Made by a program: the position numbers and the translations under genes
Part shown: positions 22,479 to 29,167 of the stretch, one piece after another
How the letters are laid out: each line of letters opens with the position of its first letter
Numbering within the stretch: position 1 is the stretch's first letter
The notes under the pieces: model-generated
Told to the model about the DNA's origin: nothing
Seen by the model: only the letters and a program-made list of their open reading frames with translations
Database searches by the model: none
Source: Xanthobacteraceae bacterium
Lineage (GTDB): Bacteria > Pseudomonadota > Alphaproteobacteria > Rhizobiales > Xanthobacteraceae
Length of the DNA stretch: 64,000 nucleotides
Assembly (NCBI GenBank): GCA_035716025.1
Contig: DASTKH010000041.1
Location: 177,426 to 241,425, forward strand
Reading direction: 5' to 3'

Positions 22479-23423
22479 ATGAGCGCAGATCTGCCGCCGC
22501 ACATGCGCCCTGAACGATCGTTCCAAGGGCTGATTCTTGCACTTCAGCGGTTCTGGGCGGATTGGGGATGCGTGATCCTCCAGCCGTACGACATGGAGGT
22601 GGGGGCCGGCACCTTCCATCCGGCGACGACCCTGCGGGCGCTCGGTCCGCGCCCGTGGAACGCGGCTTATGTCCAGCCGTCGCGCCGGCCGAAGGACGGC
22701 CGCTATGGCGAGAACCCGAACCGGCTCCAGCACTATTACCAATTCCAGGTGATCCTGAAGCCGTCGCCGCCTGACCTGCAGGACCTCTATCTCAAGTCGC
22801 TCTATGCGATCGGCATCGACCCGGCGCTGCACGACATCCGCTTCGTCGAGGACGACTGGGAAAGCCCGACCCTCGGCGCCTGGGGACTCGGCTGGGAATG
22901 CTGGTGCGACGGCATGGAGGTGTCGCAGTTCACCTATTTCCAGCAGGTCGCCGGCTTCGAGTGCCGGCCGGTCTCGGGCGAACTGACTTACGGTCTCGAG
23001 CGCCTTGCGATGTATGTGCAGGGGGTCGAGAACGTCTACGACCTCAATTTCAACGGTCGCGAGGACGACCGCAAGGTCACGTACGGTGAGATCTTCCTGC
23101 AGGCCGAGCAGGAATACTCAAGGCACAATTTCGAGCATGCCGACACCGACATGCTGTTCGAGCAGTTCAAGATGGCCGAGGCAGCCTGCCGGAAATATCT
23201 CGAGGCCGGCTGGAGCGACGGAACGGCGGGCGCAACCGGCCGCCGCCACCTGATGGCCCTGCCCGCCTACGATCAGTGCATCAAGGCGAGCCACGTGTTC
23301 AATCTTCTGGATGCGCGCGGCGTGATCTCGGTTACGGAACGCCAGAGCTACATTTTGCGCGTGCGCGAACTCGCGAAGGGCTGTGGCGAAGCGTGGCTTT
23401 CGACGGAAGGGGGCGGAGGCTAG
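22479..23423 (+). CDS. glyQ: Glycine--tRNA ligase alpha subunit
   Basis: [43 protein letters not shown]...[11 protein letters not shown]...[19 protein letters not shown]. The start is at in-frame ATG 22479. Confidence 0.95.
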
Positions 23424-23570
23424 CGGGCGGCGCCCCCGCCGCCGCGCGCCAAACCTGCGGGGAGCGCGGGTCGCTACCGTTTGCGCGGAATTTGGATTAC
23501 GAGGGGCCGCCGGCCGCCGAGAATGACGTTTTCGCTTCGAACCGAAGACCAGAGAAGAGTTTCCGAACGC

Positions 23571-25805
23571 ATGCCTGACCTCCTCATCGAACTCTTCTCC
23601 GAGGAAATTCCCGCCCGGATGCAGGTCAAGGCGGCCGAAGACCTGAAGGCGCTGGTGACCGATCGGCTGGTCGAGGCGGGCGTGCTTTACGAGGGCGCCC
23701 GGGCCTTCGCCACGCCGCGCCGGCTCGCGCTCTGGGTGCAAGGGCTGCCGGCAAATCAGCCGGACCGGCGGGAAGAGCGCCGCGGCCCGCGGGTCGGCGC
23801 TCCCGATAAGGCCATTCAGGGGTTTCTGAAGAGCGCAGGTCTGTCGTCGATTACGGAAGCTCGGATCGAAAAAGACTCCAAGAAGGGTGAATTCTACGTG
23901 GCCCTGGTGGAGAAGCCCGGGCGCCCGCTGATCGATCTGCTCGGCGAAATCCTTCCCGCGGTAATCCGCGATTTCCCCTGGCCGAAATCGATGCGCTGGG
24001 GCGGCGGCGAGCTCGCCTGGGTGCGCCCGCTGCATTCGGTGCTCGCAACCTTCGGGCCGGAGACCGAAGAGCCGGAAGTGGTGAAGTTTTCCGTCGATGG
24101 GCTTGCCGCCGGCAATCTGACCCGTGGTCACCGCTTCCTTGCGCCGGACAGTTTCACCGTCCGCCGGTTCGACGACTATGCGGTGAAGCTGGAGCGCGCG
24201 AAGGTCGTGCTCGATTTCGCGCGGCGCCAAGAGATCATTCTCGCGGATGCGCGCAATCTCGCCTTTGCCCAGGGATACGAGCTTGTCGAGGATCCCGCGC
24301 TTCTTGCCGAGGTCGCAGGCCTCGTCGAGTGGCCGGTGGTGCTGATGGGCACGTTCGACGCGAGCTTCCTCGCCATTCCGGAGGAGGTCATCCGTGCCAC
24401 GATCCGCAATAACCAAAAGTGCTTCGTCATGCGCAAGGCGGACGGTGCGCTCGCGCCGCGCTTCATTCTGGTCGCCAATACCGAGGCTGCCGACGGCGGT
24501 CGCGCCATCGTGGCGGGGAACGAACGGGTGATCCGCGCGCGGCTCGCCGACGCCAAGTTCTTTTACGAGACCGACCTCAAGACGCGGCTCGAGCACCGCC
24601 TGCCGAAACTTCAGGAAATCGTGTTTCACGAAAGGCTCGGCACGCAGGCGGAACGCGTCGAGAGGATCGAGCGGCTCGCGCGGGAACTCGCGCCCGTTGC
24701 GGGCGCCGATCCCGACGCGGCGGCGCGGGCGGCGCGCCTCGCGAAAGCCGATCTCGTTACGGAAATGGTCGGCGAATTTCCCGAGCTTCAGGGCGTGATG
24801 GGCCGCTATTACGCGGCGGCGCAAGGCGAGGACGAAAGCGTGGCGCGCGCCATCGAGGAACACTATAAGCCGCTCGGTCCTTCCGACCGCGTGCCGCGCG
24901 AACCGGTTTCGGTGGCCGTCGCGCTCGCCGACAAGATCGACACGCTGGTCGGGTTCTGGGCGATCGGCGAGAAGCCGACCGGCAGCAAGGACCCTTACGC
25001 GCTGCGCCGGGCAGCGCTCGGGGTGATCCGCATCGTCCTCGACAACGAGCTGCGGCTCAACCTGCAGCCGGCACTCTGGCGGCATTTCGCGGTCGTGCGC
25101 CGCGACGAGGCGCTGGCCGAAGCCGTGGCGCATCTCGAAACGCTGCAGGACGATATCCGGGCGCTCAGCACCTCCGACATCGAGCTTGCCATCAAGCTCG
25201 AAGTTCTGGTGTCGCAGAGCGGTGTCGCGCAGGTGATGCGCGAGAGTCTCGTGCAGGCGCACGGCGACCTGAACGAGGCAGCCGATCTCCTGGCATTCTT
25301 CGCCGACCGGCTCAAGGTGCAGTTGCGCGAGCAGGGCGCGCGGCACGATCTGGTCGATGCCGTTTTCGCCCTCGAGGGGCAGGACGATCTCGTTCTCATC
25401 GTCCGCCGCATCGAGGCGCTGGGGCGCTTCCTCGAAACGGATGACGGCAAGAACCTGCTCGCGGGCTACCGGCGGGCCGCCAACATCATCCGTATCGAGG
25501 AGCGGCGGGACGGCCGAACCTTTGCGGACGCGCCGCGGCCGAGCCTCTACGAGCTTGTCGAAGAGCGCGCTCTCGCCGATGCCATCGCCGCGGCGAAAGA
25601 GGAGGCCGCTGCCGCGGTGGCCCGCGAGGACTTCGCGGGTGCCATGGCCGCCATGGCCCGGCTCCGGCCCTTCGTTGATGCCTTCTTCGAGAACGTCACG
25701 GTCAATGTTGACCGGCCGGAGACCCGCGAGAACCGTCTGAAGCTCCTCAACGAAATTCGCGCGGCGACGCGCGCCGTGGCCGATTTTTCCAGGATCGAGG
25801 GCTGA
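23571..25805 (+). CDS. glyS: Glycine--tRNA ligase beta subunit
   Basis: [18 protein letters not shown]... is the canonical GlyS N-terminus. The ORF is 744 aa from ATG 23571. Confidence 0.95.
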
Positions 25806-25968
25806 CCGCACCCGCGTCAAATCGCGCGACTCTGCCGCAAATCGGTCCAGGCGCCGTTACCTTCCGGAAACCATGTCTGCAAGTCGCGGATAGCCGCCGG
25901 GGTGCGTTCCGCGTTGTGCTTAGCCGCGGGCTTACCGGGGCACGGTGCGAGGCGGATGGGAGGGCACG

Positions 25969-26553
25969 ATGCTGCAGCAGGCGATTTCGCTCAACAGCAG
26001 CGCAGTTCGGGCGCTGCTGCGCGCTCACGGCGCGCGGGAAGACGTGTTGGATGCGGTGTTGACGCTCTACGACCACGTGCGTCCTGCGCACGCGATGGAA
26101 GAGCCCGATGCGGCGAGCGATCTCGCCGAGGCCTTCCGCTGGGCCGAAGCCTTCGACCGCCTGCTCGCAAGCGAGGACGGCCGCGCCTTGCTTTCAAGCT
26201 ATCGCCACGCGGCGCAAATTCTCGCCGCAGCCGCGGCGCGGGACGGGAAGACCTACGAAGAGAAGCCGCAGCCCGCTCTCTACCGCCGCAAAGAAGAGCG
26301 CGAGCTTGCCGTCGCCATGGCCCTATGCCGGCGCGAGACGGAGGGTGCACTCGCGCGTGGGGATTTCGGCCTGGCGATGCGGGCAGTGGCGTGCCTGCGC
26401 CCCTTCGTCGAGGCGTTCATGGACCGCGTCGAATTCCAGTCCTGCGTCCTCGACCTGCGGGAGAACCGGCTGCGGCTTCTGCAGGAGCTCTGCTCCGTTC
26501 TCGGTCTTGCCGGCGATTTCGGGAAGATCGAGGAGCGGGATCAGGCTGCCTGA
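25969..26553 (+). CDS. Stand-alone paralog of the GlyS C-terminal (anticodon-binding, DALR-type) domain
   Basis: 194 aa. A GGAGG core ends 5 nt upstream of ATG 25969. The last 120 aa align without gaps to the last 120 aa of GlyS, with 54 identities counted by hand, including LRPFV[DE]AF, RENRL[KR]LL and DFxxIE. Confidence 0.75.
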   Translation: MLQQAISLNSSAVRALLRAHGAREDVLDAVLTLYDHVRPAHAMEEPDAASDLAEAFRWAEAFDRLLASEDGRALLSSYRHAAQILAAAAARDGKTYEEKPQPALYRRKEERELAVAMALCRRETEGALARGDFGLAMRAVACLRPFVEAFMDRVEFQSCVLDLRENRLRLLQELCSVLGLAGDFGKIEERDQAA

Positions 26554-26670: not shown

Positions 26671-27018
26671 ATGTCGCTTCCCAGCGCGCTGACGCCAATT
26701 CTTCTGCTTGCCTGCTCGAACGTGTTCATGACCTTCGCCTGGTACGGGCACCTCAAGTACAAGTCCTCGCCCTTGGCTTTCGCGGTCCTGGCGAGCTGGG
26801 GCATCGCGTTCATCGAGTATTGGTTTGCAGTGCCGGCGAACCGCCTCGGTAGCGCCGTCTATACGACTGCCCAGCTCAAGACGATTCAGGAGATCGTCAC
26901 TCTCGTCGTGTTCGCGGGCTTTTCGATCCTCTATCTGAAAGAGTCGTTCACCTGGAATTACGCCGTGGGCTTCGCGTTCATTGCCGCCGGCGCCTTCTTC
27001 GTGTTTCACCGCTGGTAG
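26671..27018 (+). CDS. Small DMT-superfamily membrane protein (DUF486-like)
   Basis: 115 aa with four predicted TM helices: ILLLACSNVFMTFAWYGHLK...FIEYWFAVPANR...LKTIQEIVTL. Confidence 0.7.
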   Translation: MSLPSALTPILLLACSNVFMTFAWYGHLKYKSSPLAFAVLASWGIAFIEYWFAVPANRLGSAVYTTAQLKTIQEIVTLVVFAGFSILYLKESFTWNYAVGFAFIAAGAFFVFHRW

Positions 27019-27122
27019 CGCCGCTCGCCCCGGTGCGGCCGGCCGCGGCCGGCGGCCAAAGCTTGCGGCTGCGCCGTCGACGTGACAGCATCCGCCGCAA
27101 TTCGTTCCCATTTGACGGACCC

Positions 27123-28151
27123 ATGCCCCGCCGCCTAGCCTGGACCTCCCTTTCGGACGAGGACCTGCTCAAAGTCCGTTTCAAGGACCTCAAGATCGGC
27201 ATTAAGGGCACGTGGCTCGAAGCCTGCGTCGCCGAGGTCAAGCAGGAGCTCGACGAACGCGGCGTGCGGGTCAAGCCGCATGTCTGGCTTTCCGACGAAT
27301 GGTTCAGCCCCGACAACACCCCCGGCATCGCCATTCCCTTCTATCTTGCGCATCCGCGGCTGATGCGGCTCGAGCGCAAGATGATCCTCGACGTCGAGGG
27401 CGGCACCGAGCAGGAGTGCAAGCGCATTCTGCGGCACGAGGCCGGCCACGTCGTGCAGCACGCCTATCAGTTGCAGCGCCGCAGGCGCTGGATCGACATT
27501 TTCGGCAGTTCGTCGATCCGCTATCCGCGCTCCTATCGCCCCAACCCGGCGAGCAAGAATTACGTGCAACATCTGCCGCTCTGGTATGCGCAGGCGCATC
27601 CTGACGAGGACTTCGCGGAGACGTTCGCCGTTTGGCTTTCGCCGCGCTCCGACTGGCGCAATCGGTATGCGGGCTGGCCCGCGCTCAGGAAGCTCGAATA
27701 TGTGGACGAGCTGATGTCAGAGATTGCCGGGCAGAAGGTCGTGCTCGCTCGTCGCGTCAAGGTCGATCCGATCAGCGAAATGACGCAGACGCTCGGCGAG
27801 CATTACGAGCGCAAACGCGCCAACTATTTGACGGCGGCGCCGAAGACATACGACAAGGACCTGTTGCGGATCTTTTCGACGGACGAGGGCCGGTACAGGC
27901 GGTGGCCGACCGCGGCCTCGTTTCTGACCCGCAACCGCGTAAAAATGCGTCGCCTCGTCGCGAAATGGACCGAAGAGCACCAGCTCACGCTCGACGCCAT
28001 ATTGGACGACATGATCGCTCGCTGCCGCGAGCTCAAACTTCGCGCGGTCGGATCGGAGAGCAAGTTGCGGACGGAGTTTACCGTGTTGTGGACCGCGCAA
28101 ACCGTGCACTTGCACTACAGCGAGTCACGGCGGAAATGGTTTGCATTATGA
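27123..28151 (+). CDS. Putative zinc metallopeptidase (HExxH; Peptidase_Mx-like)
   Basis: 342 aa. HEAGH at 27435-27449 is followed by VQH, with a downstream DEDFAETFAVW. The stop overlaps the next gene's ATG. Confidence 0.7.
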   Translation: MPRRLAWTSLSDEDLLKVRFKDLKIGIKGTWLEACVAEVKQELDERGVRVKPHVWLSDEWFSPDNTPGIAIPFYLAHPRLMRLERKMILDVEGGTEQECKRILRHEAGHVVQHAYQLQRRRRWIDIFGSSSIRYPRSYRPNPASKNYVQHLPLWYAQAHPDEDFAETFAVWLSPRSDWRNRYAGWPALRKLEYVDELMSEIAGQKVVLARRVKVDPISEMTQTLGEHYERKRANYLTAAPKTYDKDLLRIFSTDEGRYRRWPTAASFLTRNRVKMRRLVAKWTEEHQLTLDAILDDMIARCRELKLRAVGSESKLRTEFTVLWTAQTVHLHYSESRRKWFAL

Positions 28152-29167
28152 AACGTCTTCGCGTCCTGGTCCTGCACCATCCCGATCTCAAGCCGCCCGA
28201 TTCGCTCAAGGGTTATTCGGAGCGCGAGATTCACGTTTGGAAAACCGAATATGACGTCGTCTCGACCTTGCGCGAAAGCGGCCATGACGTGCGTTCCCTG
28301 GGCGTGCAGGACGCGCTGCGGCCGATCCGCGAGGAAGTCGAATCGTGGAAACCGGATGTCGTGTTCAACCTCCTCGAAGAGTTCCACGGCGAGACGGCCT
28401 TTGATCAGAACGTGGTCAGCTATCTCGAATTGCTGCGTGTGCCTTACACGGGCTGCAATCCGCGGGGCCTCATGCTCGCGCGCGGCAAGGATCTCTCCAA
28501 GAAACTCGTCGCCTATCACCGCATTCCGGTCCCGCGCTTTGCGGTCTTTCCGATGCGTCGGAAGGTGAAGCGGCCGGCTCGACTCGACTTTCCGCTCATC
28601 GTCAAGAGCGTGAGCAAGGACGCCTCGGAAGGCATCGCCCGTGCTTCGATCGTGCATTCCGACGAGAAGCTCGAGGAGCGGGTGCATTTCATCCACGAGC
28701 GGCTCGGCACGGCGGCGATCGCCGAACAATATATCGAGGGGCGCGAGCTTTATGTCGGCGTGCTGGGCAACACGCGGCTGCGCGTCTTTCCGGTCTGGGA
28801 GCTGGAGTTCGGCGACTCTCCCGAGGGCGCGGCGATTGCCACCCAGAAGGTCAAGCACGACACCGAGTACCAGGAGCGTCACGGCATCATGCAGGGGCCG
28901 GCAGAGGGCCTTTCGCCCGAGCTCGAAGCGCGTATCAAGCAGACCGCAAAGCGCATCTGCCGTACGCTCGAACTCGACGGTTATGCGCGCGTCGATTTTC
29001 GCCTGTCGCCGGACGGCATTCCGTATTTCCTCGAAGCCAATCCCAATCCCGAGATCGCCCGGAACGAGGAATATGCCTCGGCTGCCGAGTACGAGGGGCT
29101 TGAATATCCCGCGTTGCTTGACCGCATTCTTGCGCTCGCCCGCACCCGCGCGAGCAACGCGCTGTGA
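28148..29167 (+). CDS. ATP-grasp enzyme, D-alanine--D-alanine ligase-like family
   Basis: 339 aa with a pre-ATP-grasp N-domain (RVLVLHHPD...WKPDVVFNLLEEF). ATP-grasp elements are ARGKDLSKKLV, PLIVKSV...AS.GI, EQYIEGRELYVGVLG and RVDFRL...G.PYFLEANPNP. ATGA overlap with the upstream peptidase gene. Confidence 0.8.
   Translation: MKRLRVLVLHHPDLKPPDSLKGYSEREIHVWKTEYDVVSTLRESGHDVRSLGVQDALRPIREEVESWKPDVVFNLLEEFHGETAFDQNVVSYLELLRVPYTGCNPRGLMLARGKDLSKKLVAYHRIPVPRFAVFPMRRKVKRPARLDFPLIVKSVSKDASEGIARASIVHSDEKLEERVHFIHERLGTAAIAEQYIEGRELYVGVLGNTRLRVFPVWELEFGDSPEGAAIATQKVKHDTEYQERHGIMQGPAEGLSPELEARIKQTAKRICRTLELDGYARVDFRLSPDGIPYFLEANPNPEIARNEEYASAAEYEGLEYPALLDRILALARTRASNAL

Follow-up and report, generated by a model that had tools for sequence, protein, structure and literature searches.

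Why should a genome that encodes a complete glycyl-tRNA synthetase (GlyRS) carry, directly behind the gene for the beta subunit, a second and free-standing copy of that subunit's C-terminal end? The question is raised by a locus of a Xanthobacteraceae bacterium, contained in a stretch of 64,000 nucleotides (nt) of contig DASTKH010000041.1 (assembly GCA_035716025.1, positions 177,426 to 241,425), which is referred to here as the window. In it glyS is followed by an open reading frame (ORF) for 194 amino acids (aa) that resembles the GlyS anticodon-binding domain (ABD). The window protein (P0001) and its orthologues, about 12 members, are referred to as the 195-aa family. Our comparisons argue that the ORF is a real gene maintained by selection, and that its product is probably a neofunctionalised, GlyS-derived and GlyRS-linked accessory protein with a remodelled anticodon pocket. 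A preliminary description, made from the letters of the window alone, had taken the ORF for an intact, free-standing and old paralog of the GlyS ABD, a view that sequence, profile and fold now support.

In BLASTP searches the ORF product matched the adjacent GlyS with 71 identities over 172 residues (41%, E 2e-28). The homologous region, residues 17-188, spans the complete ABD as delimited in the literature, which in the GlyRS of L. plantarum is I546-K694 (PMC10464925). The last 120 aligned residues contain 54 identities and no gap, exactly the count given in the preliminary description, and 61 identities are found over 142 residues. The sole gap in the alignment is a 13-residue insertion relative to GlyS (about 12 had been estimated), located between helices 2 and 3; it holds two residues conserved in the family, H41 and E45, and the loop predicted there comprises residues 38-47. 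The NCBIfam model for glyS, TIGR00211, aligns over its positions 528-684 (of 684) with residues 13-187 of the ORF (E 3.4e-16), at a score of 58.9 bits that lies under the 300-bit equivalog cut-off. Because of this low score, and because PF02092, the Pfam model of the GlyS body, HD and linker domains, has no match in the 194-aa ORF, the product is not itself a GlyS. A match to Pfam DALR_1 had been anticipated and was not obtained, Pfam giving no hit for the window ORF at E <= 0.1 or at E <= 1. DALR_1 (PF05746, gathering score 22.3 bits) matches five of six family members (best E 2.1e-06) and, at 26.5 bits, the tail of the neighbouring GlyS. Homology of the window ORF thus rests on BLASTP, NCBIfam, profile searches and fold, Pfam having contributed none.

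An AlphaFold2 model based on an alignment of 57 sequences (pLDDT 91.3, pTM 0.87) has eight helices and predicts that the ORF product adopts the DALR-type ABD fold, a four-helix bundle plus a helix-loop-helix. When the model was compared with the PDB using Foldseek, GlyRS beta subunits were retrieved first (9a71_B and 7yse_C/D with TMq 0.70-0.72 and a root-mean-square deviation (rmsd) of 3.3-3.4 A, then 8ie2, 7lu4 and 7xof) and ArgRS ABDs next (4oby, 5b63). The match to 7yse_C covers 175 columns with TMq 0.70, rmsd 3.3 A and probability 1.00. The structural superposition proposed in the preliminary description returns GlyRS beta ABDs as the best PDB matches. At the level of sequence, 7yse, 8ie2 and 7lu4 are retrieved by a family profile as well.

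The ORF is not a split gene, because glyQ and glyS are both complete and GlyS retains its own ABD, which in the column alignment is intact with all canonical contact residues. It stands beside its intact parent as an independent gene with its own start, Shine-Dalgarno-like sequence and stop, the ORF and its distance from glyS being as first described, and its GC content at third codon positions (GC3) is 0.80 against 0.81 in glyS. Length alone is no evidence for a gene at this locus, because at 67% GC even a 900-aa ORF lies antisense to glyS (23118-25820, minus strand), one of many long overlapping ORFs in the window that are artefacts of high GC content. At the nucleotide level no similarity was found between the window ORF and its glyS, and five contigs, each from an independent sequencing run of its own, carry identical ORF DNA in the same context. 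A recent duplication and an assembly artefact can both be dismissed on these grounds, in agreement with the preliminary description.

Word-indexed and exhaustive profile searches recovered about 12 orthologues of 189-210 aa that are 46-63% identical to the window protein (P0002-P0006, P0009, which is a fragment, P0010, P0158-P0160 and the product of L011 6001-6570). The L011 member belongs to Variibacter sp. HOG14, a metagenome-assembled genome (MAG), and the hosts of the family are uncultured Xanthobacteraceae/Hyphomicrobiales. A protein identical to that of the window is deposited at NCBI as HET9903767.1, a 'hypothetical protein' of a Xanthobacteraceae bacterium MAG, and database labels for the family are either 'hypothetical protein' or an automatic 'glycyl-tRNA synthetase beta chain'. 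Among 1.84 billion representative proteins, three clusters (50% identity) scored 218-350 bits, followed by ordinary GlyS tails at no more than 161 bits. A two-pattern peptide scan found the family motifs in a single GTDB species representative, and in the scan of genome contigs L011 was the only true family locus, the other hit, L012, being an ordinary GlyS; as the two peptide patterns were strict, these counts leave absence elsewhere unproven. Scanning metagenome contigs with the family alignment yielded 229 pattern matches and no relatives. Members of about 189-195 aa contain no frameshifts and only one-residue indels, their start and length are conserved, and six members share 55 invariant columns, family-specific residues included.

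Relatives were also compared for genomic context, a check that the preliminary description had suggested, and the family proved to be conserved beside glyS wherever upstream sequence is visible. In the window and at L001, L006/L007 and L011 the paralog is immediately preceded, on its own strand, by a glyS that is full-length or matches PF02092, and at L009 the 3' end of glyS occupies that position. At L002-L005 and L008 and on the P0002 and P0004 contigs, an end-truncated, unannotated gene is found on the same strand at the same distance. Where measurable, the spacer between glyS and the paralog is about 150-290 nt. Downstream of the family a DMT_6/DUF486 gene is located in the window, at L001-L003, on the P0004 contig and at L009 and L011.

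Selection was estimated as the ratio of nonsynonymous to synonymous substitution rates (dN/dS) by the Nei-Gojobori method (NG86) for five members of the family (window, L006, L009, L010 and L011; 10 pairs). The ratio is 0.32-0.56 at dS 0.6-1.2, values that are approximate because dS is near saturation and GC3 bias is strong. In codon bootstraps, 0 of 1000 replicates reached a dN/dS of 1 in each of the 10 pairs. Purifying selection was thus found where the preliminary description had allowed for neutral decay of a duplicated fragment. GlyS tails (window, L006, L011, L013 and L014) gave a dN/dS of 0.11-0.21 at dS 0.65-1.7, and the paralog evolves about two to three times faster than the GlyS tail at replacement sites; between hosts, GlyS is 76-82% identical as against 46-52% for the paralogs. 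Since the dS values are similar, the two genes appear to have diverged together since their common ancestor. A decaying fragment is rejected by several features in combination: start, length and Shine-Dalgarno-like sequence are conserved, frameshifts are absent, and dN/dS is below 1.

What sets the family apart from GlyS is the anticodon pocket. In the E. coli GlyRS-tRNA(Gly) complex R585 holds C36, N588 holds the A37 phosphate, and the contacts to C35 come from backbone atoms (PMC9908026). The corresponding columns were counted in 209 GlyS-type tails aligned with the paralogs, the window ORF being aligned to 7yse_C. At R585, 206 of the 209 GlyS tails have Arg; the family has Arg in eight members, His in three (H80 in the window) and Gln in one. 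Asn at N588 is found in 202 of 209 tails and in 0 of 12 family members, which have Q, E, D, A, G or K instead (Q83 in the window). D649 is Asp in 208 tails, and in the family it is Gln (seven), Glu (two), Lys (two) or Arg (one), with E148 in the window protein. V657 is Val in all 209 tails, whereas ten family members have Phe, one Leu and one Val (window F156); M658, for which all 209 tails have Asn, is Glu in four members, Asp in four, Gln in two, Val in one and Lys in one (window Q157). At the F652 and V655 loop equivalents the window ORF has M151 and V154. The loop that binds C35 (V655-M658 in E. coli) reads VTVN in alphaproteobacterial GlyS and is remodelled in the window protein.

Contact residues that are near-invariant in GlyS are thus replaced in the 195-aa family, often by acidic ones. 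Other GlyS-invariant residues (N, E, K, K and D, for instance the N of DGKNLL and the E-K-K of IRIEEKKD) are lost as well, several of them from the helix that carries the R585/N588 equivalents. The hydrophobic core, F651/F652, the LRP of LRPF..FF and R665-x-N667-R668-L669 are kept. The family has, in addition, conserved residues of its own, namely Q3, L8, V13, E24, V26, L27, H41, E45, F56, W58 and R64 in helices 1-3 and the inserted loop, together with F156. These columns show that the constraint which preserves the pocket throughout GlyS no longer acts, or acts in another direction, in the 195-aa family. The trans-acting tRNA(Gly) binder proposed in the preliminary description is unsupported as stated, the equivalents of the C36, A37 and C35 contacts being replaced and nearby basic and polar residues lost. 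The other role named there, that of a GlyRS-modulating factor, may still apply.

A search with a broader alignment revealed further stand-alone GlyS-tail ORFs (143-146, 176-199 and 208 aa) in related metagenomic lineages. The 208-aa ORF (L013 3887-4513) begins 256 nt after a full-length glyS of 793 aa, keeps the equivalents of R585, N588, V657 and N658, and has a basic C-terminal extension. The short form of 143-146 aa has a novel N-terminus (MPQ...) and eight diverged members; at L014 (2494-2925) a full-length glyS ends 161 nt upstream of it and a Methyltransf_24 gene comes next, as is also the case downstream on the P0191 contig, where the upstream gene is end-truncated. The 176-199-aa form (P0014, P0165 and P0168) has its own N-terminus (MF.D.SER...), and at L015 (147-677, P0165) an acetyltransferase gene in convergent orientation comes after it, the contig ending before any upstream glyS could show. 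The Asn of N588 is missing, too, from the short form (Glu in 8 of 8), the 176-199-aa form and P0012. Like the window paralog, these ORFs consist of the ABD only, and the 143- and 208-aa forms directly follow a full-length glyS on the same strand. However, their N-terminal boundaries are different, the VTVN loop is kept, and they fall into separate clades; those at L014 and L013 are also much closer to their own glyS, to which the window paralog bears no nucleotide similarity.

A neighbour-joining (NJ) analysis of 87 tails (200 bootstraps) placed the 195-aa family in a monophyletic group (92%) with long branches, and the short form in another (98%) beside the GlyS of its own lineage, while the deep nodes are unresolved at 30-53% support. 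Nucleotide identity between a paralog and the 3' end of its own glyS is 81.6% at L014 (364 nt), 73.7% at L011 (247 nt, in the 3' part only, L011 6324-6570) and 68.8% at L013 (401 nt), and none was found in the window or at L006. The L011 protein ends in ADFSKIEG exactly as GlyS does, and its C-terminal segment resembles the GlyS of the same locus slightly more than it does the other members of the family, which suggests gene conversion between the tandem copies. Either partial duplications of glyS have arisen more than once, or a single old duplicate undergoes homogenisation from time to time; single and multiple duplications cannot be told apart because the deep nodes are unresolved and possible gene conversion confounds the comparison. 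One further candidate, L016 6001-6714 (P0046), in which a GlyS tail is fused in frame to a SET-domain-like N-terminus beside a ppdK split into two genes on a contig of 300 kb, probably reflects an error-rich long-read assembly or a rearrangement and was not used as evidence.

The features of the window locus are collected in Table 1. The order on one strand is glyQ-glyS-paralog. The mechanical glyS ORF begins at 23481 (774 aa), and the 744-aa version is the gene call in L001. The glyS segment homologous to the paralog is, by the alignment, the presumed source domain of the duplication. Further downstream, at 27033-29167, a Peptidase_Mx gene (putative zinc metallopeptidase) lies beside an ATP-grasp gene (Dala_Dala_lig_C-like), and this pair is syntenic in L001-L003 and the P0004 contig.

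Table 1. Coordinates of the paralog, its parts and its neighbours in the window
Feature	Position	Strand	Details and basis
glyQ, GlyRS alpha subunit	22479..23423	+	PF02091 E 2e-141
glyS, full-length GlyRS beta subunit	23571..25805	+	744 aa from MPDLL...; PF02092 E 8e-195 plus DALR_1
glyS segment homologous to the paralog	25323..25799	+	GlyS residues 615-773 of the 774-aa mechanical ORF; BLASTP
Spacer between glyS and the ORF, 163 nt	25806..25968	+	Promoter/terminator scan; alignment with L011, L009 and L006
Shine-Dalgarno-like GGGAGGG	25958..25964	+	4-5 nt before ATG; GGAGG ends 5 nt before ATG
Free-standing GlyS ABD paralog	25969..26553	+	ATG...TGA, 194 aa plus stop
Insertion Y34-P46 relative to GlyS	26068..26106	+	Sole BLASTP gap; family alignment; between helices 2 and 3
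H80-A-A-Q83, R585/N588 equivalents, both replaced	26206..26217	+	7yse_C alignment; column counts
V154-E-F-Q157, equivalent of the C35-binding loop	26428..26439	+	Remodelled
DMT_6/DUF486 membrane protein gene, downstream neighbour	26671..27018	+	Pfam E 3.9e-44

The Shine-Dalgarno-like sequence, whose GGAGG core had been noted before, reads GGGAGGG in three of the four aligned spacers (window, L011 and L009) and GGGGGG in L006. A promoter scan found no sigma-70-like promoter in the 163-nt spacer, which holds only one weak hairpin (25898-25911), and the simplest inference from this arrangement is co-transcription of the paralog with glyQS. Apart from the Shine-Dalgarno-like sequence, the only block that the window spacer has in common with those of L011 and L009 is CCGGAAACCATGTCTGCAAG (25864-25883). 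It resembles a sigma-54 GG/GC promoter; a sigma-54 or ECF-type promoter was considered and rejected, the GG-GC spacing being one base too long and no CGTT/-10 partner fitting. In L009 (about 85-125) and in the spacer between glyS and the ORF of L013, a G+C-rich, REP-like palindrome, CCCTCTCCCC...GGGAGAGGG, directly follows the glyS stop and could be a terminator or a recombination substrate. Scans with Rfam and for tRNA genes found no riboswitch, T-box, tRNA(Gly) or other such element in the whole 64-kb window.

Several explanations other than an accessory protein were weighed. The chance that an assembly or annotation artefact is responsible, whether through chimerism of the contig, misjoining of a piece of glyS or the like, is negligible. 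The unrelated L016/P0046 does resemble an error-rich contig, but the window ORF recurs with identical DNA and context on the five contigs, has orthologues in independent metagenomes and a MAG, and lacks the nucleotide similarity to glyS that could drive a misjoin. It is also very improbable that the ORF is a non-functional remnant of a partial glyS duplication that has stayed open because stops are rare at 67% GC. The abundance of long spurious ORFs such as the antisense one, the two- to threefold faster evolution relative to the GlyS tail, the narrow distribution, and the seemingly recurrent partial duplications and rearrangements of glyS tails speak for such a remnant; set against these, dN/dS is significantly below 1 in 10 of 10 pairs at dS near 1, frameshifts are absent, start, Shine-Dalgarno-like sequence and length are conserved, the 55 invariant columns include family-specific ones, and the AlphaFold2 model is confident.

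The product might instead be a neofunctionalised helical scaffold that has nothing to do with GlyRS or tRNA and works, for example, with DMT_6 or the Peptidase_Mx/ATP-grasp pair; the position after glyS would then be a relic of its origin. CsaA, a homologue of a tRNA-binding domain that turned protein chaperone, is a precedent, DMT_6 is always the next gene after the 195-aa family, and the exchange of canonical RNA-contact residues for newly conserved ones would fit. We regard such a role as unlikely, as the other GlyS-tail forms stay linked to glyS while their downstream genes differ (Methyltransf_24 at L014/P0191, acetyltransferase at L015), and as PADLOC gave no defence-system match for the ORF and its three downstream neighbours, nor did any other family match point to another system. 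Doubtful, too, is a canonical and autonomous tRNA(Gly) anticodon-binding factor acting in trans. The complete ABD fold is retained, as are R-x-N-R-L and the F651/F652 equivalents, the less diverged L013 paralog keeps the R585, N588, V657 and N658 equivalents, and stand-alone synthetase domains that bind tRNA have precedents such as DALRD3 with METTL2 (PMC7237682). Yet Asn at N588 is absent from all 12 members, Val has become Phe at V657 in ten of them, N658 has given way to E, D, Q, V or K, and H80, Q83, F156 and Q157 occupy these positions in the window protein. The residues N, E, K, K and D, invariant in GlyS, are gone. In GlyRS, moreover, the ABD functions as an attached part of a large enzyme that itself binds tRNA (PMC9908026). 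The acidity of the domain (net charge -7 over the homologous region) could be added to these points; however, genuine GlyS ABDs are equally acidic, so net charge and pI, taken as proxies for RNA binding, do not separate the family from them.

The explanation that we consider probable remains the neofunctionalised accessory protein with a remodelled pocket. A partial tandem duplication of glyS would have given rise to the paralog, whose protein would have ceased to read the tRNA(Gly) anticodon (C35/C36) in the manner of GlyS. The glyQS transcript or locus would be its source. By binding protein it could modulate GlyRS or serve it as an adaptor, or else it could bind RNA with altered specificity, and it would not be an autonomous tRNA(Gly) trap. 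A number of points weigh against this account, beside the uninformative charge and the approximate dN/dS values. Eight of the 12 family members retain Arg at the R585 equivalent, R-x-N-R-L has not been altered, and side-chain changes do not prove that binding was lost, because the C35 contacts are mediated by the backbone. Not only glyS but also DMT_6, Peptidase_Mx and ATP-grasp remain together, and the linkage to glyS could reflect mere tandem origin and a generally stable synteny.

A wider proposal is more tentative, but possible: that repeated partial duplications of glyS in soil Hyphomicrobiales have given rise to a stand-alone ABD protein, which in the 195-aa family has been newly recruited into glycyl-tRNA metabolism. 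It would then serve the alpha2beta2 GlyRS as a modulator or regulatory third subunit, or it would be an adaptor, its pocket, with a conserved Phe and an acidic residue for Val-Asn, recognising a different RNA or nucleotide. Among free-standing paralogs of synthetase domains, functions in editing, in regulation or as adaptors of specificity have come to light repeatedly. If the family modulates GlyRS or recognises RNA, it would be an accessory component for the 'orphan' alpha2beta2 GlyRS, whose heterotetrameric design is still puzzling, and would amount to a natural experiment on the re-specification of a DALR-type anticodon pocket. The series of paralogs, with 82% identity to glyS at L014, then 74%, 69% and none in the window, offers a compact system for domain-level duplication, possible gene conversion and neofunctionalisation, although its narrow distribution in uncultured bacteria is a practical limit.

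In line with the preliminary description, no stand-alone GlyS-ABD protein was found to be described in a literature search that included the GlyRS structural papers and a domain-evolution preprint. A review of duplicated aminoacyl-tRNA synthetases (aaRSs) lists many aaRS-like proteins, and for GlyRS only GlyRS2 and the amino acid:carrier-protein ligases (PMC9437257). AlaX, YbaK/ProX, HisZ, Trbp111/CsaA and YqeY resemble the paralog in that a single accessory domain of a synthetase exists as an independent gene maintained by selection, yet none of them is derived from the ABD of the GlyS beta subunit. Most known free-standing cases are editing, catalytic-core or OB-fold domains rather than DALR-type ABDs. 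The direct relative is the GlyS ABD itself (E. coli 7YSE, L. plantarum 8IE2, T. daxensis 7LU4), which shares with its paralog the all-helical fold, 41% identity to the tail of the neighbouring protein and the LRPF..FF, R-x-N-R-L and DFSKIE motifs. The paralog differs from it in lacking the other GlyS domains, in the 13-residue insertion, in the altered contact equivalents, in its faster evolution and in its family-specific residues. The nearest concept is DALRD3, a eukaryotic protein with a DALR ABD that targets METTL2 to tRNA-Arg (PMC7237682). Both are non-synthetase proteins built on a DALR-type (ArgRS/GlyS-like) ABD, DALRD3 working through a partner, and the ArgRS ABD is the next-best structural match of the paralog after GlyRS. 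DALRD3 is, however, larger, eukaryotic, ArgRS-derived and recognises tRNA-Arg, whereas the paralog is bacterial, of GlyS origin and without a conserved anticodon pocket. Should the paralog prove to be an adaptor with a remodelled pocket, it would be a bacterial counterpart of the DALRD3-type specificity factors.

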